64,000 bases of DNA from Candidatus Iainarchaeum sp. (lineage in GTDB: Archaea; Iainarchaeota; Iainarchaeia; Iainarchaeales; GCA-2688035), in NCBI GenBank assembly GCA_017610205.1, contig JAFCCL010000005.1, forward strand, positions 30,106-94,105, written 5' to 3'. This document shows, piece after piece, positions 38,395 to 49,146 of the stretch. The notes under the pieces are model-generated. The model made no database searches. It saw only the letters and a program-made list of their open reading frames with translations, and was not told the origin of the DNA. Every line of letters starts with the position of its first letter. The first letter of the stretch is position 1. The position numbers and the translations under genes were made by a program.

Positions 38395-39399
38395 GTGGGC
38401 TTAAGTAAAATTGACCTGAAAGTTTTGAATTTTATCTGCTTAAAAGGGGCTCAAATGCCGGAAACAGAAATTGCAAAACAGCTCAGGCTAAAGCCAAGCA
38501 CTGTTTCATATTCTTTAAAAAAAATGTTTAGGGAAAAATCCATTCTTGGTTATAGGTACAGAGTTAATTATGCAAGACTTGGTCTTGTTACCACTGCATG
38601 GGTTTTGCTTAGAATAAGGTCTGCAAATATTGATTCATTTGAACTCTTTGACAAGATGCTTAAATTTCCACAGGTTCACGTTGCTTCATTTATTACCGGT
38701 GAATTTGATATTGCCCTCAAAGTTCTTGAACGTGATGTTTCGTGCGTTGATTCTTTTGTAAGAGAATTATCAAAAACCTTTTCTGAATTTATTGATAGTG
38801 CAGAAGTTCTTTTGGTTACCAAAAATTACAAAAACCACAATATTTTGCCAAAGCACAATTCCTGCCTTAAATCATTTGACAAAACAGATTTTAAAATACT
38901 TTCAAGCAGAATGGATTCTCCAAAAAAAGAGCTTGGTCAGATTGCGTCAGAGCTTAATTTGCACAGGAATACTGTTAGCAAGCGTTGGAAATCATTTTGG
39001 AAAGAAAACGTTCTTGTAAAAAAAACACCGGTTGTAAATCCATTACATTACACAAAGCTAAAACTTTCAACAAAAGCCATTGTACTTATTGATGTAACCC
39101 CTGAGGTTAGTGATTTACTTGCAAAAAAGCTTTTAGAAATGGATGAAGTTCACGAGCTAAACCGGATTTTGGACGGGTTTTCACTAATGGCAATAATAAG
39201 AACAGCTGACATTCCTTCATTTCTTGATTTTCTCAAGTGGGTGTTGTTTGAAAATTTTGGAAAAGCCAAAATCAAAAAAACAGTTTCAACAATAGTGCTT
39301 AAATCAAAACCTCACAAACAAAATTATCTGCCTCAATTGCTTGACAAAAAAATAATCAGGTTTAGAAAAGAAAAACTTGTGTGCAATTACCGTTCCTAA
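38395..39399 (+). CDS. tandem-domain Lrp/AsnC regulator
   Basis: two HTH+RAM units. Confidence 0.85.
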   Translation: MGLSKIDLKVLNFICLKGAQMPETEIAKQLRLKPSTVSYSLKKMFREKSILGYRYRVNYARLGLVTTAWVLLRIRSANIDSFELFDKMLKFPQVHVASFITGEFDIALKVLERDVSCVDSFVRELSKTFSEFIDSAEVLLVTKNYKNHNILPKHNSCLKSFDKTDFKILSSRMDSPKKELGQIASELNLHRNTVSKRWKSFWKENVLVKKTPVVNPLHYTKLKLSTKAIVLIDVTPEVSDLLAKKLLEMDEVHELNRILDGFSLMAIIRTADIPSFLDFLKWVLFENFGKAKIKKTVSTIVLKSKPHKQNYLPQLLDKKIIRFRKEKLVCNYRS

Positions 39400-40023
39400 T
39401 TAGTTTCTTGTTTTTGCAATAAGGTAACCTGCAAGAAGTGCAACTGAAACAATTCCAAAAAGGAGTACTGTCATTTCAAAAGTAAAAGGGGTGCCTGCAT
39501 TAACTGCTGAAGCAACGCCATCATTTACTGCTGCAGGAGCTGCAGTTCCGCTTGCCACTGTTCCTGTAACAATTTGTTCTGCAACAACTTTGGCACTGTC
39601 AACTGCTCCTAAAACAAATCCTCTTTCCCCTGACTCAATAAATGCCTGACCTGCATCTATTCCTGCAAAAGACATTGTTTGCTCTTCAACAATTGAAATA
39701 AATGAATAAAGAAGTCCAACAAGGCCAAACAAACTTATCCCCAAGACAATAAACACATTTATTGGAGTCTGGTGCAAAAAGATATTTTTTCCCTTTTTTG
39801 TAAGGCCGTAATATTTCCATTTTCTGCCTTCGTCTAGTTCCTCTATAAAATCTGCTGTTTTAAGAATGCTAAGGTGCTGTTTTACTGTTGGAGCAGCCAA
39901 CCTGAGCTTTTTGCTCATCTCTGTAAGGGTGTGGTTCCTTCCTCTAAGAAGTTTGATTATCCCTGCCCTTGTCTCAGATGCAAGTGCCTTGAATTCAGGC
40001 CCGGAGAGTTTTATTTCTTCCAT
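39400..40023 (-). CDS. ArsR-type wHTH regulator with C-terminal TM helices
   Basis: FKALASETR...QHLSIL...RKWKYYGLT; 2 TM. Confidence 0.85.
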   Translation of the reverse strand: MEEIKLSGPEFKALASETRAGIIKLLRGRNHTLTEMSKKLRLAAPTVKQHLSILKTADFIEELDEGRKWKYYGLTKKGKNIFLHQTPINVFIVLGISLFGLVGLLYSFISIVEEQTMSFAGIDAGQAFIESGERGFVLGAVDSAKVVAEQIVTGTVASGTAAPAAVNDGVASAVNAGTPFTFEMTVLLFGIVSVALLAGYLIAKTRN

Positions 40024-40127
40024 TATATCAACTAATATATTGTTCAAGCTTATTTAAAAAAATTTCATTTTACTTAGGTTTGTAACTAACCTAATTATTT
40101 ATATATCTTAAACACATTCTTTAACTT

Positions 40128-41143: not shown

Positions 41144-42124
41144 TCAATTTCTTGGAAAGAGATTGTGTTTCAGCTCTTTAAAGTAATGCAGTGATTCAAA
41201 GTCTTTGATTATGTCAGAAAACTTGTACCTTATTTCATTTAAGAGTTTGTGGTACGCGTCCTCGTTTTCAATGTTTATGTCAAGCTCCAAGTCAGTTACT
41301 CCAATCAGTTCGTTTGTATAGATTATGTAAGGATTGTGGCGGCAGAAGGCAAGCAGGCCATTAAATCTTTCTCTGTCAAATCTCTTAAAGTAAAGGTGAA
41401 GCTTGAAATAAGTGAATCCAATCTTTCTGAGGTTCAGGCTGATTCCAAAGCCCTGGATTATTCCGGCTTCTTTCATCTTTTTTATTTTGTGTGAAACTGA
41501 TTTGGCGGAAACGCAAACCTTTTTTGCAATATCAATGCTCTGTGCCCTTGAATTCGAAGCAAGAATGGAAAGTATTTTGAGATCTTTTTTATCAACTTCG
41601 ATTCTCTTACTCCTGCCACAAGAGAAGGAAGGAATTTCATCCAATACTTTATCCTTTAAAAGAAATAGCTTTGGGAACTGGATATATCTGTCAAAGACCG
41701 AAACCTGTTTGTCATGGATATAATCGCCATACTTCGAAAGCAGGTTTCTCCAGAAGCCTGAAAAATCGCTTATGCTGTCTGCCCAGTAAATAAAATTCAA
41801 GTCCCAGGCTCCGTTAACCGAAACACACCAGCCAACTTTTTCAGCCTTAACAAGGTATTCTTGCAGGGCTTTCTCTTTCTCAGGAGTTACGTTGTAGAGC
41901 CTTATCAGTGTCCTAAATACGAGTATTCCAAGCTTGCAGGTGTCAATCCTCGTAAAGAAGGAAGTGATAACGCCCTCTTCCTGCAATTTCTTTATGCGAT
42001 AGTTTGTTACCTCTTTGCTTAGCCCAACCTTTTTCCCGATTGACTGAAGGCTCTGTCTTGAATCCAAGTCCAATTCAAAGAGAATCTTCCAATTCTTGAT
42101 ATCCAAATCTACCATATTTAACAT
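41144..42124 (-). CDS. tandem-domain Lrp/AsnC regulator
   Basis: two HTH+RAM units; paralog of 43391-44386. Confidence 0.88.
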   Translation of the reverse strand: MLNMVDLDIKNWKILFELDLDSRQSLQSIGKKVGLSKEVTNYRIKKLQEEGVITSFFTRIDTCKLGILVFRTLIRLYNVTPEKEKALQEYLVKAEKVGWCVSVNGAWDLNFIYWADSISDFSGFWRNLLSKYGDYIHDKQVSVFDRYIQFPKLFLLKDKVLDEIPSFSCGRSKRIEVDKKDLKILSILASNSRAQSIDIAKKVCVSAKSVSHKIKKMKEAGIIQGFGISLNLRKIGFTYFKLHLYFKRFDRERFNGLLAFCRHNPYIIYTNELIGVTDLELDINIENEDAYHKLLNEIRYKFSDIIKDFESLHYFKELKHNLFPRN

Positions 42125-42210: not shown

Positions 42211-43305
42211 ATGGAAACAAGACCTGAGGAAAGCAAGGCCACAGTAGACAAAGGGCATTATTTCCAAGAAATGAAGGAAACTTGGAAACATACCTTCGAA
42301 TACATGCAGCAAAAGCTTTCGCAAATAGAAACCAAGGATAGGGAAGCTATTCTTGCTTTGCGAGAAAACTATGTTGTAAAGAAAAGAATCTCGGATAAGA
42401 ATCCCAAAGTAAGGCCCTTTTTAATGAGGCTTAGTTTTGAGGTTTGCGGTGGCGGCAACTGGAAAAGGATAATTCCCGCCTGTGCAGCAGTTGAGTTCCT
42501 CAACATTTCAACATATGTTACAAACGCTGTTTTTGACGAAAAAGGAGAGAGCAAAACAAAGAAGGACGTAAACCAGTATATAATTGATGCAATGTTTCTT
42601 AGAGATTTGGCCGCTGAATGCCTTTTGGAAGTCAAAGTCAGTCTCTCTCCGGAAGAAACAAGAGCAGTTGTTGGTAAACTTGCTGAAATCAACAAACTTG
42701 TTTACCTTGGCCAATACGTTGATTTGTACCAGCTAAAGAAAAAGAATCTTAAAAGATTCAACTCATTCGAAGAAATGAAACAGCTTTACGAGAAAAGAAC
42801 AGAATACTTTTGCGGTCACTTTATGAGCAATATAGCATACATTGGAGCAATCCTGGCAAATGCCACCGGAGAACAGATTAAAGTACTAAAAAATTTTGGC
42901 TTAAACTATGGCACAGGCATTCAGATAGCAAACGATTTAGGAGACTTTGTTTTTGGCAAAGCCAAGGACTATGAAAAAAGCTACAAGGACCAGTACTCTG
43001 ACATCAAACAAGGAAAACTGACCTATCCAATAATTCTTGGACTTGAAACAGAAGAAAAAAACAACTTCAAAAAGTTGCTGGGAAAAAAGAACGCAAGCAA
43101 AAGAGAGCTTGTAGCCCTAACAAAATATTTGATTAAATCCGGAATAGTTGACAAAACAAAGGGACTTTCAAAAACCAGATATTACAAGAGTAAAAAAGAA
43201 CTGAAGAAACTTCCAAAGTCAGACACGAGAATAATGCTTTCCTTAATGGCATCTATGTTAAGGTCAAACAAATACTTTGTATTCCTAAGAAACTTTGCAA
43301 AATAA
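42211..43305 (+). CDS. polyprenyl synthetase-fold protein with degenerate Asp-rich motifs
   Basis: KVRP, ACAAVE, GQYVDL, FGLNYGTGIQIANDLGD, SDIKQGKLTYP. Confidence 0.8.
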   Translation: METRPEESKATVDKGHYFQEMKETWKHTFEYMQQKLSQIETKDREAILALRENYVVKKRISDKNPKVRPFLMRLSFEVCGGGNWKRIIPACAAVEFLNISTYVTNAVFDEKGESKTKKDVNQYIIDAMFLRDLAAECLLEVKVSLSPEETRAVVGKLAEINKLVYLGQYVDLYQLKKKNLKRFNSFEEMKQLYEKRTEYFCGHFMSNIAYIGAILANATGEQIKVLKNFGLNYGTGIQIANDLGDFVFGKAKDYEKSYKDQYSDIKQGKLTYPIILGLETEEKNNFKKLLGKKNASKRELVALTKYLIKSGIVDKTKGLSKTRYYKSKKELKKLPKSDTRIMLSLMASMLRSNKYFVFLRNFAK

Positions 43306-43390: not shown

Positions 43391-44386
43391 TTATTTTGCA
43401 GAATTTTTGAATGGGAAATAATCCAGTTTGTGTTCTTTATATATTAGAAGTGTGTCGTAGTCTCTTATGACATCTGAGAATTCATTTCTAATCTTCAATA
43501 AGATCTTGTGTAGTCTTTCCTCGTTTTTCACTTCAAATTCCAATTCGATATCCCAACTGCCCAGCAACTTTAAGAATTGCACTCCTTCAGGGTGCTGTTT
43601 TACAAAAGATTTCAGTTCATTTTCTTTTTCCGGAGAGAGTTTCTGCAATCTTAGAATAATTTTGTGCAGTTGATAACCCAGCTTGCTTAAATCGATAATG
43701 GCCCGGTATTGAACTATAACATTGTCTTTTTCCAATTTTTTTAGCCTGTAGTTGATTACATCTCTTGTCAGGTCGGTTTTTTGCATTAAGTTCAAAACAG
43801 AAATTCTTGCATTGGTTGACAGCAATGCCAATATTTTGTTTTCTATTTCATCAAGTTCATAATGCCCTATTTCTCCACCATAAACAAATTCTTCTTTTTC
43901 CTTTTGTTCCGCTAGATATGTTTTTGTAAAAACCGGCGAGGTTTGTGTGATAAGAATATTTTTTTCCAAAACAAACAAGCCATAAGCGTTAATAAAATCT
44001 GTTAGAATATGCCCCAATTTGTTTACATTTTTTGCCAAAATAGAAACAGCTAAGTCCCATCGCCCTCTGCAAGCGGCAACCCAAATAGAATTCTTGTTGC
44101 CAACCCAGTATTCAATAATCTCTTTTTCTTTGTTTGTGTCTATGTTCTGAAACTTGAAGTAAAGCTTATACTGGGTGTAACCGAGTTTGGAGAAATTAAT
44201 TACTGTGTAAAACTCAGATATCACCTTTAAGTTTATTAAATTCCTTAGCCTGTAGTCAACAACCTGCTTACTCAAGCCAACTTTTTTACCCAATTGGGAC
44301 AAAGGCAGCCTGCTGTTAAGATCCAGTTGGAAGAGAAGCTTTCTATCCCTTTTATCCAATTTTACTTGGTTTTCCAGCATATACAA
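43391..44386 (-). CDS. tandem-domain Lrp/AsnC regulator
   Basis: two HTH+RAM units. Confidence 0.88.
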   Translation of the reverse strand: MYMLENQVKLDKRDRKLLFQLDLNSRLPLSQLGKKVGLSKQVVDYRLRNLINLKVISEFYTVINFSKLGYTQYKLYFKFQNIDTNKEKEIIEYWVGNKNSIWVAACRGRWDLAVSILAKNVNKLGHILTDFINAYGLFVLEKNILITQTSPVFTKTYLAEQKEKEEFVYGGEIGHYELDEIENKILALLSTNARISVLNLMQKTDLTRDVINYRLKKLEKDNVIVQYRAIIDLSKLGYQLHKIILRLQKLSPEKENELKSFVKQHPEGVQFLKLLGSWDIELEFEVKNEERLHKILLKIRNEFSDVIRDYDTLLIYKEHKLDYFPFKNSAK

Positions 44387-44507
44387 CTAAATATTACCAT
44401 ATTAGCCACATATATTTAAATCTTACTAATTTGTCAAAATTTTGAATAAAAAGTTTGTTATATGTGCTAAGATGTAATTATTTACATGGCATAACCGGAG
44501 GTTTGAA

Positions 44508-44678
44508 ATGGAACCAGAAAACATATTTAGTACTGTGTCTGCTGAAAAGCTGGAGATGGCTAAGAGATTCAAGGAGCGAATACTGTCATACCCAAACCCG
44601 GTTGAGTTTGTAAACAACATGTATGGCTGCCATCCAGGTGAGGGCGGCACAGACTATTTCAGGGGGATATACGGTTAG
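44508..44678 (+). CDS. putative RiPP precursor peptide (56 aa, two XYG motifs)
   Basis: GGAGG RBS; MEPENIFSTVSAEKLEMAKRFKERILSYPNPVEFVNNMYGCHPGEGGTDYFRGIYG; 28 nt upstream of the rSAM gene. Confidence 0.7.
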   Translation: MEPENIFSTVSAEKLEMAKRFKERILSYPNPVEFVNNMYGCHPGEGGTDYFRGIYG

Positions 44679-44706
44679 ATTCCCAAAAGCACGGGAGCAA
44701 AACAAA

Positions 44707-45831
44707 ATGCCTAGTGAAAGCTTTTTTGAAACCTGGGGAAAAAACATTGAAGACTTGATTGAGAGGCATCCACTTCAAATAATTAGCTGGGAAGCTACAA
44801 GAAGATGCAATCTAAATTGTGTTCACTGCGGTTCACCTGCTGAAAACGCTGTCATAAAAGAAGAGTTAACAACAGGGGAAGTGATTAACGCCTTCAATCA
44901 AATTGCTAAAGATTTTGACATGAGCGAATTCAAACACATAAACATTACTGGCGGAGAACCGACTGTAAGGGAAGACTTACTTACTATCCTAAAAGAGTTA
45001 AGCAAAAAGCCATTCTATAGAAACGTTGACATCCAAACCAACGGCGTGATTATCGCGCACAATCCAAAAATATTAGAGGAGTTTAAAAAATATGGCGTAA
45101 CAGGAATAGGGATTAGCATTGACGGTTTAAGAGAAACAAATGATAAGTTTAGAAAAAAGAAAGGGCACTTTGATGAAGCATTTAAAGCTGCAAAGTTAGC
45201 TGTAGAAAAAGGCTTTGAGGTAACGGTTTCAACGGTTGCACACTCAAAAAACGTTAATGAAATCCCTAAATTATATGAACTCATAAAGAGGGAAATTCAT
45301 CCAAGGATTTTCAGAATAATGACTATAGACTCAATCGGAAGAACTAAAACAAACAGAGAATATTTGTTGTCGCCAGAGCAGACAAGGGAAGTGATAAATT
45401 TCCTGTTTAAAGAATATGTAGAAAATTGTGAAAACTACAAAAACTCAAAGGAAACAATGATTGAACTCGGCTGTGGTGGCTGGCTTGGATGCGAATTAGA
45501 GGGATTAATCAGGCCGTATGTTTTTCACTGTATTGCTGGAGTCAACAACCTGGGAATTTTGCATGACGGAAAACTGGCTGCTTGTTCGAATATTCCTAGG
45601 GAAGAAGGTTTTATGGAAGGAGACTTGCGAACGGAAAGAATCAAGGAAGTCTGGGAAAATAGATACCAAAGATACAGGGGCTTTGAATGGAAAAAAGTTG
45701 GTGAATGTAAAAACTGTTCAGAATGGCGTTATTGCCATGGAGGTCCAATACACAAGAGATTGAGAGATGGGAAAATGCTTGACTGCCTGTACCAAACATA
45801 TTTTCATAAAAAGGATTACAGGAACAACTAA
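44707..45831 (+). CDS. radical SAM/SPASM peptide maturase, splicease (PlpX/TIGR04133)-like
   Basis: WEATRRCNLNCVHCGS, TGGEP, CIAG..LGILHDG..AC, CKNC...CHGG...C; start MPSES after GGGAG. Confidence 0.85.
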   Translation: MPSESFFETWGKNIEDLIERHPLQIISWEATRRCNLNCVHCGSPAENAVIKEELTTGEVINAFNQIAKDFDMSEFKHINITGGEPTVREDLLTILKELSKKPFYRNVDIQTNGVIIAHNPKILEEFKKYGVTGIGISIDGLRETNDKFRKKKGHFDEAFKAAKLAVEKGFEVTVSTVAHSKNVNEIPKLYELIKREIHPRIFRIMTIDSIGRTKTNREYLLSPEQTREVINFLFKEYVENCENYKNSKETMIELGCGGWLGCELEGLIRPYVFHCIAGVNNLGILHDGKLAACSNIPREEGFMEGDLRTERIKEVWENRYQRYRGFEWKKVGECKNCSEWRYCHGGPIHKRLRDGKMLDCLYQTYFHKKDYRNN

Positions 45832-45860: not shown

Positions 45861-47037
45861 TTATGCCTCTCGTACGAGCTTCCTTAGCAACAAGTCAAAC
45901 TCTGGCATTTGTTTGAGTTGTTCTATTATTTTGTCGTCTGCTTTTTGTTCGTTCCAGAATGGTTGTTCATCTTGCAGCATTGGGTTGTTTTCTTTTTTGA
46001 GCATGGCAAAGTATTGTTCGATGCATTGTTTGTAGCTTATTTGAGTGTAAACCTTTTCCTGGTCTTTGAAGCCCCAACCAAGCCAGTAGTGCTTTATTGC
46101 ATAGCTCCAGTCAAAGCTCCTGCTGGTAAAAATGTTTCTGAAAAAGTGCAAAGCACACCTTTCCTTCCAGGGGATTCCAGTCTTAGCCTAAGCTGTGTCA
46201 AAGCTTTTCTTTATTGCCGCATAAGTTATTGGCTTCCCGTTAGACTGGCAGAAAAAGAAAGCTTCAGCCCCTGCTCGTTTGTTTGGCGAAAGTTTTGCCC
46301 AATTCTCCTGGTAAGGCTTTGCCAGATAGCTGATAACGGTTCGCGGAACAGTCTTTGACTTTGGAAAACCCACAACCAAATAATTCTTTTCAGGCCTAAC
46401 ATGCTTGTTGCGCATTGAAAGAATTTCGCTGATTCAAGCGCCTGTATCATTAGCCAAAGCCATAATAGCCTGGTTTCTTATGGAAAACTTGTCGCTGGTG
46501 TAAGCACTGATAAGCTCTTTTACTTCCTCTTCCGTTGGCATTCTGCTGCAAAGCTCTGGCCTGGGCTCCTTCGGCATTTCAAGGAAAGCCATCAAATCCA
46601 GCTTTTGGTTGCCATTCAATCCATAAATCCATTTGAGAAATCGCTGGCAGCTCTTGAATTTCTTCTGAAGAGTGCCATGCCTTACCTCTTTTTCTTCGTA
46701 GCGCCTTAATTCTTGCTCCCACCATTCCTTTAATTGCACTTGGGTTACTTTGTTTGCAGGAGTTTGGCCAAAGCCAATATATGGCCAAAACTCAGGCTGA
46801 GCTCAAATTCTTCTCAAAAGTGCATACGCAGAATTCCTGCCTTTTAATCTTGCGGATTATCCAGGCCACATATTCCAACAGCTTTTCTTGGTTGTAGCTG
46901 CAAAGCTTTGTTTCAAAATTAGGGTGATTGTTTGCCTTAATGTTGTTTATTACGCGAATTCTTTGCTTTCCTCTTCTATGCGAGCCAAAGTTGTTTTCAA
47001 AAACGCTTAAATCCAGTTCCTCTAAATTCATGTCCAC
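45861..47037 (-). pseudogene. tyrosine recombinase/integrase pseudogene
   Basis: RNQAIM..DTGA*ISEIL (catalytic Arg position is TGA), KSKT, in-frame TAG at 46188, HFFR, LGW; additional stop at 46792 and frameshift near 46780. Confidence 0.85.
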
Positions 47038-47122: not shown

Positions 47123-47953
47123 TTACAGTTTCTTCCAGTATTTTTGCATTAACAGTGCATTTCCTTCAATGCTTGGGCTTTCGCAGATTATTCTTCCGGA
47201 AACATTTTTCTTGCGAAGTGCTTTCAAAAACCATTTGTAGTTGAAGGTGTTTTCCTCATCTTCCATATCCAAATGATTTCTTTCACCCTTTGCAGAAAAC
47301 CTTATCCCGGAAGCATGCATGTAAAGAAATTTCCTGTACTTTTTCGGAATTTCTTCAATCGCTTTTTCAAAATCCTTCTCGCTTTTGAACCTTCCGTTAT
47401 CGCGTGCATGCAGGTGTGAAAAGTCAACCATTGGAAGCAGACCCTTAACTTTTTTACACAATGTAATTGTTTCATTCAAAGAACCAAGCTGGCTTGCCTT
47501 CCCGGTTGTTTCAGGAGCCAGTTTTATCTTCCATTCCTTTTCCTCAATTTCTTCAGCCAATTCTTCAATTTTTCCAACAACCTTTTCAAGCACGTCTTTT
47601 TTGTCTTCGCCCTGAAAGTAGGCTGGATGAAATGTTACAATTTTTGCCCCGCACAATTCTCCAATTCTGGCAGAGTCCATTATTCTTTTTTTGCTTGCCT
47701 TAACCTTTTCCTCTTCTTTTGAGTTTAAATTAATGTAATACGGCGCATGAACGCTAAGACTTATCTCTTTTTTTTCACCTGCCTCCTTCACTTTCCTGGC
47801 AGTTTCTTTTCCCATGTTTACTCCTCGGACAAATTCAAGTTCCATTGCTTCAAGTCCAAGTTCTTTAACGCGAGCAATTCCCGAAATACTGTCTCTTTTT
47901 TTTGACGAAATTGGGATTCCTGCTGTTCCAAAAAGCATTTTTTGCTTTGCCAT
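47123..47953 (-). CDS. nfo: endonuclease IV
   Basis: FGTAG, HAPYYINL, FHP, PETTGK, DFSHLHAR, ICESP. Confidence 0.92.
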   Translation of the reverse strand: MAKQKMLFGTAGIPISSKKRDSISGIARVKELGLEAMELEFVRGVNMGKETARKVKEAGEKKEISLSVHAPYYINLNSKEEEKVKASKKRIMDSARIGELCGAKIVTFHPAYFQGEDKKDVLEKVVGKIEELAEEIEEKEWKIKLAPETTGKASQLGSLNETITLCKKVKGLLPMVDFSHLHARDNGRFKSEKDFEKAIEEIPKKYRKFLYMHASGIRFSAKGERNHLDMEDEENTFNYKWFLKALRKKNVSGRIICESPSIEGNALLMQKYWKKL

Positions 47954-48018: not shown

Positions 48019-49146
48019 ATGCCTGGGAACATTTTTGCAAAAAAAGTCCAAGTTCACGAAATTTTTAAGGACGAGCGTTTCCTTTATCCTGAATTTGTGC
48101 CTGAAAGAATGCCTTTTAGGGAACCAGAGGTTGATAGCCTTGTTTTTTCATTACACCCTGTTTTGCAGGGAAAAAAGCCCCAAAATGTTTTTGTGTGCGG
48201 AAAAACAGGAACAGGAAAAACTGCAACAGTAAAATTTGTCCTCAACGAATTGCAGCAATATAGTGACAGGGCAAAAGGCCTTTACATTAATTGCTTCCAG
48301 CTTAACACAAGGCACTCGATTCTTACTCAAATTTCAAACTTTTTGGGAGATGCTACTCCAAGAAGGGGAATTGCAACTGATGAAGCCTTTGCCAAAATGC
48401 TTGAAGCATTAAAGCACACTTCATTCATTCCAATTGTTGTCTTGGACGAAGCCGACCAGTTGCTGCATGACAAAGAAGCAAGTAAATTATTTTATGACCT
48501 TTTGCGGGTTGTTGAATATGGCAAAGGCCGCTTTGGGTTAATTTTCATAAGCAATCTTTCAAATTTTGTTGCTTTGCTTGATGACAGGGTTAAAAGCAGC
48601 CTTTCAGAACAAACAATCAGCTTTGAGTCCTATTCTCCGTCTCAACTTAAAGAAATTTTGAATCAGAGGGCGCAATATGCTTTTCACTCTGGTGCATTGG
48701 GCTCTGAAGCAATAAATATTGCAGCAGCCCATGCTGCAAAGCTTGGTGGCGATGCAAGAATTGCAATTGAATGCCTTTTCCGTGCCGGACGAGAAGCTGA
48801 AAAGGAAAACAGTGAAAAGCTTGAAATAAAACATTTGCAAAAAATCTTTTCAGAGGTTGATTCAAGAGCCTTGCAAAAAGCAATTTCCTATCTGAGCATT
48901 GCCGAGCGCGAAATCTTAGGGTTTGTGCCTGCCACCAAGGCAATTGCTTCAGGAGAACTCTTTAAAGCCTACTCAAAAGCAAGCAAAAAGCCTTTGACTC
49001 AAAGGCGTTTCAGAACATTAATTTCAGAGCTTGAAAAAAAACAGCTTATTACAGCCAAAACAACAGTAAAGCCTCCTCGTGGCAGAACAAGAATGATTTT
49101 ACTGGCTTTTCCAAAAAACAAGCTTGAGTTGACAGACAAAAACTAA
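48019..49146 (+). CDS. cdc6: ORC1/Cdc6 replication initiator
   Basis: GKTGTGKT, YINC, VLDEAD, GDAR; C-terminal wHTH GRTR. Confidence 0.92.
   Translation: MPGNIFAKKVQVHEIFKDERFLYPEFVPERMPFREPEVDSLVFSLHPVLQGKKPQNVFVCGKTGTGKTATVKFVLNELQQYSDRAKGLYINCFQLNTRHSILTQISNFLGDATPRRGIATDEAFAKMLEALKHTSFIPIVVLDEADQLLHDKEASKLFYDLLRVVEYGKGRFGLIFISNLSNFVALLDDRVKSSLSEQTISFESYSPSQLKEILNQRAQYAFHSGALGSEAINIAAAHAAKLGGDARIAIECLFRAGREAEKENSEKLEIKHLQKIFSEVDSRALQKAISYLSIAEREILGFVPATKAIASGELFKAYSKASKKPLTQRRFRTLISELEKKQLITAKTTVKPPRGRTRMILLAFPKNKLELTDKN

Follow-up and report, generated by a model that had tools for sequence, protein, structure and literature searches.

A gene for a 56-amino-acid (aa) peptide and the gene that follows it, which encodes a 374-aa radical S-adenosylmethionine (rSAM)/SPASM enzyme, form an unnamed pair that recurs in many uncultured archaea and bacteria. 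We examined this pair in a genome of Candidatus Iainarchaeum sp., a DPANN archaeon, within a stretch of 64,000 nucleotides (nt; contig JAFCCL010000005.1, positions 30,106 to 94,105 of the forward strand), hereafter the window, to which all coordinates without a locus name refer. It is very probable that the two gene products are an enzyme and its substrate. As for the reaction, excision of tyramine at a Met-Tyr-Gly (MYG) site of the peptide is our best single guess by analogy with known spliceases, and one to which we give slightly less than an even chance.

The peptide gene (44508..44678, + strand) starts with an ATG at 44508 and ends with a TAG at 44676-44678. A GGAGG ribosome-site motif lies at 44497-44501 (+), 6 nt ahead of this ATG, and 28 nt separate the peptide stop from the ATG of the enzyme gene (44707..45831, +) at 44707. 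An original prediction made from the letters of the window had described this open reading frame (ORF), the GGAGG motif, the spacer and the rSAM/SPASM gene as a candidate system for a peptide made by the ribosome and modified after translation (RiPP), and all of these coordinates are confirmed. Its remark that the ORF was missing from the ORF track is true but reflects size only, because the default list has a lower limit of 60 aa; the 56-aa product is already in the protein collection. The full peptide (P0002) reads MEPENIFSTVSAEKLEMAKRFKERILSYPNPVEFVNNMYGCHPGEGGTDYFRGIYG, with MYG as residues 38-40 and a terminal IYG as residues 54-56. It consists of a leader-like amphipathic segment at about residues 10-27 (...KRFKERILS; 44535..44588, +), which is the predicted enzyme-docking part, a core at residues 30-43 (NPVEFVNNMYGCHP; 44595..44636, +) with MYG at 44619-44627, and the C-terminal tail DYFRGIYG (44652..44675, +). 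Tyr39 is the presumed target residue in the core.

Conservation of the peptide and its core

We built a profile (A1) from eight peptides, namely the query, six relatives of 57-73 aa found by a word-based search and a seventh from the reference-genome locus L001, all of which have NPVEFVNNMYG.HP in common. With this profile we searched all reading frames of 82 loci, comprising 80 metagenome loci with an enzyme orthologue (58-69% identity), L001 and the window. A peptide homologue was found at 77 of the 82 enzyme loci (E values from 2e-32 to 7e-15), mostly directly upstream of the enzyme gene on the same strand; it is downstream of the enzyme in L043, L097 and L099 and about 1.2 kilobases (kb) upstream in L069 and L074. 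At four of the five loci that yielded none (L062, L094, L096 and L101) a contig end cuts the 5' side of the enzyme. At the fifth, L085, a transposase-like fragment (2-328) abuts an enzyme orthologue (383-1387) that is without its first ~24 residues, and the locus looks disrupted. Whether homologous loci carry an upstream peptide that conserves X-Tyr-Gly (XYG) was the check proposed with the original prediction, and at these 77 loci such a peptide is present, with MYG kept in nearly all cores.

Among 65 cores from 64 distinct peptides, the motif NPVE[FY]VNNMYGCHP is near-invariant. Counted out of 65, its first half is N 63, P 65, V 65, E 64 and, after the [FY] position, V 64, N 65 and N 64, and its second half is M 62, Y 65, G 63, C 54, H 65 and P 64. 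The alternatives at the Met position are Leu (two cores) and Ile (one), and Met, Leu and Ile together account for 65 of 65 cores. At the position of Cys41, by comparison, 11 of 65 cores have another residue (Ser in seven, Ala in three and Thr in one). After the core come a spacer that varies in length and is acidic or rich in Gly, and then YF..[VI][FY]. The leader has the family consensus [FY]K.R[ML]L.[WY]; it is the core and not the helix that is the most conserved part of the peptide. Of the two XYG motifs originally proposed, MYG is thus conserved (Tyr in 65/65, Gly in 63/65 and Met in 62/65 cores), whereas the terminal IYG is not, even though the YF..[VI][FY] part of the tail is, and we rejected IYG as a second site for this reason.

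Pro, Val and Gly are each encoded by all four of their codons across 62 distinct 42-nt cores while the residue itself stays fixed. Synonymous codons are free and residues are fixed, and selection therefore acts on the protein sequence. These data bear on whether the 56-aa ORF is a chance frame, with the enzyme starting instead at ATG 44623. The protein collection indeed has such a 402-aa enzyme call, overlapping the peptide ORF in a different frame, and the AT content of the region is high (guanine-cytosine (GC) fraction 0.38). The retention of the peptide at 77 loci with free synonymous change refutes a chance frame, and the alignments of enzyme orthologues begin within residues 1-10 of the 374-aa form, which leaves this explanation with practically no credibility.

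One peptide, encoded at L080:4715-4976 (+), contains two cores, NPVELVNNMYGCHP and NPVEVVNNIYGCHP, each with its own short helix-like segment ahead of it, and is the sole multi-core member among the 77. At L035:3032-4445 (+), a Peripla_BP_6 protein and the peptide share one open frame of 471 aa from stop to stop, which could reflect either a genuine fusion or an error in sequencing. P0002 itself has no match in Pfam or NCBIfam (release 20), and the one homologue with a name at its source is labelled 'hypothetical protein'. An ESM Atlas search with the peptide returned only unnamed clusters (best score 0.83), and a literature search for the core motif returned nothing relevant, only an unrelated krill paper.

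Enzyme relatives, predicted complex and candidate chemistry

The enzyme (P0001) matches the Pfam domains Radical_SAM (PF04055; 93 bits, cut-off 29.5) and SPASM (PF13186; 32.7 bits, cut-off 21.5). In an alignment of 22 sequences (A2), the cysteines of its CX3CX2C motif (C34, C38 and C41; 44806-44829, +) are invariant, as are seven more, C256, C275, C293, C334, C337, C343 and C360 (45472-45786, +). It thus has both the cluster motif of the rSAM superfamily and a C-terminal SPASM domain with seven putative auxiliary-cluster cysteines.

Two families of rSAM/SPASM enzymes were considered as its relatives, TIGR04133 (rSAM_w_lipo) and the PlpX splicease family TIGR04103, which we take to be the same as IPR026482. 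TIGR04133 outscores all other NCBIfam models, with 224.5 bits over model positions 15-347 of 350. The score for TIGR04103 is 105.2 bits, and the next full-length models are the GDL-motif maturase (103.5 bits), PqqE (100 bits, cut-off 381.35) and MftC (99.6 bits, cut-off 265); among solved structures, that of PqqE is the closest in sequence (6c8v, E 2.9e-12). The enzyme motifs quoted in the original prediction, ISWEATRRCNLNCVHCGS and HCIAGVNNLGILHDGKLAAC, are present, and the patterns WE.T..CNL.C.HCGS and C.AG...G...DG....C are common to the enzyme and a true TIGR04103 enzyme from Nostoc, to which it is 26% identical over 344 aa. The proposed resemblance to PlpX and TIGR04133 is thus upheld by the best model and the shared motifs, but not by the family cut-offs, since the enzyme fails both that of TIGR04133 (425) and that of TIGR04103 (725). 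IPR026482 is given as the PlpX family in PMC11002830.

In a library clustered at 50% identity the orthologue family has one full-length representative, P0108 (63% identity), and the next relatives are 41-43% identical to the enzyme. TIGR04133 is the best model in 51 of the 60 representatives scanned, out of 150 listed; among these 60, P0180, P0182 and P0200 score above its cut-off and a few further-out ones are TIGR04103-like. We computed two quick maximum-likelihood trees of 106 and 109 rows, with one outgroup and with Shimodaira-Hasegawa-like approximate likelihood ratio test (SH-aLRT) values as their only support measure. In both trees the query family forms a clade (7 rows, SH-aLRT 99-100) within a 22-row group, whose sister (support 99) is a group of 64 rows with the true TIGR04133 enzymes. 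TIGR04103-like enzymes lie outside both groups, with the Nostoc enzyme in a separate 13-row clade. Because the model cut-offs failed and the trees place it outside both families, the enzyme is neither a PlpX-family nor a true TIGR04133 member, and belongs to an uncharacterised branch between the two. Neither Pfam nor NCBIfam release 20 has a curated model for this branch. The literature searched gave no function for TIGR04133, nothing on TIGR04103, and nothing specific on DPANN RiPPs or on splicease/lipoprotein pairs.

Among all the relatives whose gene context could be obtained, several are accompanied by proteins or peptides with Tyr-Gly motifs. The true TIGR04103 enzyme (853 bits), on a Nostoc plasmid, comes after a Nif11 precursor ending GGRGSIALYGLPPELF (...IALYGLPPELF) and is followed by a 71-aa ORF, which is the published type I splicease layout. 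In Agathobacter rectalis, an unannotated ORF ending in GPVMYGTGVRM precedes a TIGR04103-like enzyme (234.9 bits) by about 80 nt; this ORF is L114:2210-2416 on the plasmid record NZ_CP143948.1, where the enzyme is annotated only as 'radical SAM protein' and is followed by a major facilitator superfamily transporter. True TIGR04133 enzymes of Treponema and Parabacteroides follow lipoproteins that match TIGR04134 (43.7 and 207.1 bits) and have SCYGMP and CEYGSP just past the lipobox. We also scanned 215 genomes of the window's phylum with hidden Markov models (HMMs) and found TIGR04133-like enzymes at E<=1e-45 in four, including the genome of the window (G000). At the DPANN locus L004 a small membrane protein (954-1385) directly upstream of the TIGR04133-like gene has a tandem IIRPMYGVEPMYGVPMPAPEYGVG, whose sites PMYG, PMYG and PEYG are close to the PlpA tag PIRP[ML]YGLPI, and at L119 the small membrane protein directly upstream (2581-2841) has a tandem VSYGPAPPNTMIEYGPAPPK (SYGPAPP/EYGPAPP). 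Both proteins look like membrane-anchored splicease-type substrates; their genomes belong to the same order as that of the window.

Tyr-Gly partners thus bracket the query branch on both sides of the tree, which suggests a shared chemistry; this is our main argument for it, and it is one by association. Among the other loci, DUF1843 peptides beside a TIGR03913-like enzyme of Aureibacter had been considered as XY[GA] substrates and were rejected as GDL-motif peptides. Loci of other rSAM classes in the window's own and related genomes (L006, L007 and L104-L110) have no YG-rich partners. Outside the window, contig C3 of the same genome carries at least four rSAM/SPASM-like genes at ~222100-229500, with TIGR04133 hits of 64-127 bits and no YG-rich partner in the stretches read.

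We predicted the complex of peptide and enzyme with our own alignments, A2 for the enzyme and A1 for the peptide, in three runs with three controls. All three runs gave an interface score ipSAE of 0.90, while the best control scored 0.00; the predicted local distance difference test (pLDDT) value of the partner was 72-73, and the contact agreement between runs was at least 68%. Of 80 solved complexes, 58 reached this mark, as did 2 of 110 mismatched pairs; these counts hold only roughly here because our own alignments were used. Predicted error is lowest for the contacts that peptide residues 10-26 make with residues 6-10, 237-241 and 265-272 of the enzyme, and the interface list also contains the Met-Tyr-Gly at peptide residues 38-40, peptide residues 51-56 and enzyme residues 24-25, 76-77, 108 and 171. 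These latter enzyme residues would be the C-terminal ends of barrel strands, adjoining the cluster loop and the GGE motif. The N-terminal helix is thus predicted to dock on the enzyme directly, with no separate RiPP recognition element (RRE), and the MYG is predicted to be placed at the interface. The original view of the small ORF as a real partner of the enzyme is borne out both by this predicted binding and by the 77 of 82 loci.

The same model could be read to mean that the small protein is an accessory or activator and not the substrate. In that case the enzyme would have a different peptide or a small molecule as its substrate, perhaps one taken up through a Liv-type ATP-binding cassette (ABC) importer. 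The lowest-error contacts belong to the helix rather than to the core, Y proteins and leaders are described in PMC11414181 as activating spliceases, and a Peripla_BP_6 binding-protein gene is directly upstream of the peptide at 45 of 82 loci, with permeases at 24. Against this, the core is more conserved than the helix and is duplicated in L080, residues 38-40 are within the predicted interface, and the 18 loci of the window's type, the window among them, have no transporter beside the pair. An accessory role is accordingly quite improbable, and we return to the peptide as substrate.

In the mechanism that we propose, the two genes would form a ribosomal-peptide modification module under a divergent Lrp-type regulator, with the 56-aa product as substrate. 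Its N-terminal helix would dock on the rSAM/SPASM enzyme and fill the leader or activator role that a separate RRE protein has elsewhere. The NPVEFVNNMYGCHP stretch would then enter the barrel, where radical chemistry would take place at Tyr39. In a splicease reaction, a tyramine equivalent (C8H9NO, -135.06 Da) would be excised at Met-Tyr-Gly and an alpha-keto-beta-methionine amide would remain in the backbone. No protease or exporter was seen among the ORFs and Pfam matches of the window, and the product may therefore stay a small modified protein; it could act as a ketoamide protease inhibitor or have another conserved function. Splicing at MYG is preferred because the branch is surrounded by X-Tyr-Gly partners and the core has Tyr-Gly as its fixed centre. 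We regard the explanation as a whole, with splicing as its most likely chemistry, as having an even chance of being right.

Several observations weigh against splicing and hold our confidence at this level. The enzyme fails both the TIGR04133 and the TIGR04103 cut-off, and the TIGR04103-like enzymes, including that of Nostoc, fall outside its group in trees that have limited sampling, their sequences having been picked for similarity to the query. Conservation in the peptide extends well past X-Tyr-Gly, with N36, N37, H42 and P43 as invariant, or nearly so, as the Tyr, and an invariant core is unusual among antibiotic-type RiPPs. The Gly is replaced by Ala, giving MYA, in 2 of 64 distinct peptides (3 loci). 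A third DPANN locus with a TIGR04133-like enzyme, L121, has no X-Tyr-Gly partner in view, the Aureibacter enzyme comes with peptides that have no XYG, and an unannotated Phocaeicola record has no same-strand upstream ORF of at least 60 aa. The complex score is the model's own confidence given our own alignments as input, and the case for splicing as a whole is built from sequences and models.

The same pair might instead carry out another reaction, such as a C-C or C-O cross-link between Tyr39 and an Asn, a His or some other residue, an epimerisation or the first step towards a Tyr-derived cofactor, which is what PqqE and MftC carry out. After TIGR04133, the models for TIGR04103 (105 bits), the GDL-motif maturase (103.5), PqqE (100) and MftC (99.6) score alike, the invariance of N36, N37, H42 and P43 would suit a cross-link or another reaction, and the Gly to Ala changes fit as well. 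Conserved cores are, moreover, typical of the precursors of pyrroloquinoline quinone (PQQ) and mycofactocin. A thioether through Cys41, however, is unlikely and was rejected, given that 11 of 65 cores have Ser, Ala or Thr in its place. Also against a different chemistry, the clades next to this one again have X-Tyr-Gly partners, and the window has no PqqD- or MftB-type gene. Taking these points together, we consider a different chemistry possible but rather unlikely, and keep tyramine splicing as the preferred reaction.

Gene neighbourhoods and distribution

Upstream of the peptide and divergent from it is a gene for a 331-aa protein of the tandem (two-module) Lrp/AsnC type (43391..44386, -), in which Pfam finds HTH_24 and an HTH_AsnC-type domain twice each as well as AsnC_trans_reg. 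Family membership and synteny suggest that this protein regulates the pair, and a putative promoter may lie in the 121-nt divergent intergenic region (44387..44507). Two further tandem Lrp/AsnC paralogues are found at 41144-42124 (-) and 38395-39399 (+), which makes three within 6 kb, and the trio flanks a polyprenyl synthetase gene (42211-43305) and an ArsR-type helix-turn-helix gene (39400-40047).

The Lrp-like gene also enters into an alternative identity for the enzyme, as a haem or haem-d1 rSAM protein (AhbC, AhbD or NirJ) with the tandem Lrp-like proteins as AhbA/B-type sirohaem decarboxylases. The enzyme scores 120.1 bits with NirJ, 118.4 with AhbC and 112.7 with AhbD, and the Lrp-like protein has weak matches to AhbA (34.7 bits) and AhbB (18 bits). 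The enzyme matches cover its N-terminal part only, against cut-offs of 500-650, and we rejected an Ahb/NirJ identity on these scores and this coverage; the grouping with these families that had been named as a refutation of the original prediction was accordingly not seen. TIGR04133 is the best full-length model, the peptide is a universal partner, the 45 loci with a binding-protein gene have no Lrp-like gene, and the Lrp-like protein scores higher on ChrS (83.8 bits) and LrpA (57.8 bits). All of this makes a haem function extremely improbable.

We clustered the neighbour genes of all 82 loci and found two layouts, plus 19 loci with neither marker; at 17 of the 19, the enzyme is preceded by fewer than 500 nt. 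In the first layout (45 loci) the gene directly upstream of the peptide is the Peripla_BP_6 gene, and the Liv-type permeases (24 loci) and ATPases (11 loci) occur mostly with it. In the second, which is that of the archaeal-type loci (18 including the window), a divergent tandem Lrp/AsnC gene, with homologues of ~320 aa, is upstream of the peptide and no transporter adjoins the pair; the divergent gene of the original prediction is thus a conserved neighbour. A B12-binding rSAM gene is present at 22 of the 82 loci and a class I methyltransferase gene at 13. The window's own genome is without an orthologue of this B12-rSAM protein (best match 29% identical). Membrane proteins of two unnamed kinds, ~600 and 444 aa long, are each encoded at 15 loci. 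They belong to four families without Pfam matches downstream of the pair in bacterial-type loci, exemplified by L068:4392-6188, L066:6145-7476, L051:6433-7563 and L082:6094-7248, with lengths of ~600, 444, 377 and 385 aa in 15, 15, 8 and 7 loci, respectively; the ~600-, 444- and 385-aa families appear to have hydrophobic N-terminal segments.

It had been proposed that the pathway is minimal, with no separate RRE, protease or exporter. The absence of these genes holds for the window, but minimality applies to this genome only, as the B12-rSAM (22), the methyltransferase (13) and the Liv-type importer with its binding protein (45 loci) accompany the pair elsewhere. Nor is the system specific to archaea. 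Among the best 120 homologues, which are 57-69% identical to the query save for the window's own 402-aa call (100%), named archaeal sources are Woesearchaeota, Nanoarchaeota and Pacearchaeota, and named bacterial sources are Patescibacteria, Phycisphaerae, Sedimentisphaerales and a deltaproteobacterium. Enzyme orthologues were not found in 60 related genomes searched, many of them incomplete, and none was found at E<=1e-50 in the 215 phylum genomes, many likewise incomplete, except for G000. A scan of reference-genome contigs gave L001 as the sole orthologous locus, along with an unrelated rSAM gene of Tenacibaculum. This patchy, domain-crossing pattern suggests horizontal transfer.

Downstream of the pair, the region 46188-46790 (-) holds a pile of short overlapping ORFs in varied frames that may be a decayed gene. 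We dropped an integrase remnant at 46188-46739 as an explanation because Pfam yielded nothing there up to an E value of 1, and the GC profile has no clear island. Further on, an AP_endonuc_2 gene (47123-47953, -), whose product is a xylose isomerase-like TIM barrel, adjoins an Orc1/Cdc6-type gene (48019-49146, +; Cdc6_lid, AAA_22 and Cdc6_C), and a replication origin may lie nearby.

Significance and comparison with known systems

If MYG is spliced, the pair would be an experimentally tractable, minimal two-gene splicease system from a DPANN archaeon. It would have a fixed recognition sequence of 11-14 residues, useful for putting beta-amino-acid and ketoamide groups into proteins, and it would bring the large TIGR04133-like radiation within the reach of tested splicease chemistry. 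In Scott et al. 2022 (Chem), 939 splicease systems were reportedly predicted, some of them in archaeal genomes (PMC10533398, PMC11626197), and the family of the pair may already be among them.

The invariance of the core across two domains and its place in transporter operons speak for a conserved role in the cell and not for diversification in an arms race. A bolder reading is that the product is no variable RiPP of the antibiotic type but a universal, sequence-fixed molecule, such as a new Tyr-derived peptide cofactor, a redox or signal compound or a fixed ketoamide inhibitor of one conserved target, that has been exchanged between Archaea and Bacteria and kept in symbiont-type genomes of ~1.4 Mb. 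Its grounds are a 14-residue core that is invariant from DPANN to Phycisphaerae, enzymes that are 57-69% identical across domains and the frequent linkage to B12-rSAM, methyltransferase and Liv-type ABC importer genes; we consider it unlikely.

Among known systems, PqqE/PqqA and MftC/MftA likewise combine an rSAM/SPASM enzyme that acts on the Tyr of a short peptide with a core that is conserved across taxa. The enzyme studied here falls short of both families (100 bits against 381.35, and 99.6 against 265), and PqqD-, MftB-, PqqB/C- and MftD/E/F-like genes are all missing from the window. The TIGR04133/TIGR04134 lipoprotein pairs of Bacteroidales and Treponema are closer, in that TIGR04133 is the best-scoring model over the full length and the sister group in the trees, and the TIGR04134 partners carry Tyr-Gly-x-Pro (SCYGMP, CEYGSP), to be compared with YGCHP here. 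They differ in enzyme score (224.5 against 425) and in the partner, which here is a 56-aa peptide of cytoplasmic type with neither a lipobox nor a TIGR04134 match.

The type I spliceotides (PlpX/PlpY/PlpA, PcpXYA, Pleurocapsa) likewise have an rSAM/SPASM gene beside an X-Tyr-Gly precursor, and the motifs around the Fe-S cysteines are common to our enzyme and the true TIGR04103 enzyme. According to PMC10533398 and PMC11414181, MYG is a native site of PlpXY and PcpX. In contrast to these systems, our enzyme is outside the TIGR04103 clade (105 bits against 725), the peptide has no Nif11/NHLP leader by Pfam and NCBIfam, no PlpY-like small ORF adjoins the enzyme in the window's ORF list, and the flanks of its XYG are unrelated to the PlpA tags, quoted as PIRP[ML]YGLPI in PMC10533398.

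Finally, the binary (type II) spliceases of Rheinheimera, RhaX/RhaA and RcsX/RasX, compared here by description only, differ from our pair in their gammaproteobacterial hosts and in cores that are variable and flanked by Cys pairs, whereas the core described here is invariant across two domains of life. They are two-component systems too, in which a leader alpha-helix replaces the Y protein; in PMC11414181 they are without Y proteins and the leader helix is modelled onto the enzyme instead. A MYG site is spliced in RcsA (PMC11414181, PMC11626197), and the layout predicted for our complex matches the one modelled for RhaX/RhaA in PMC11414181.

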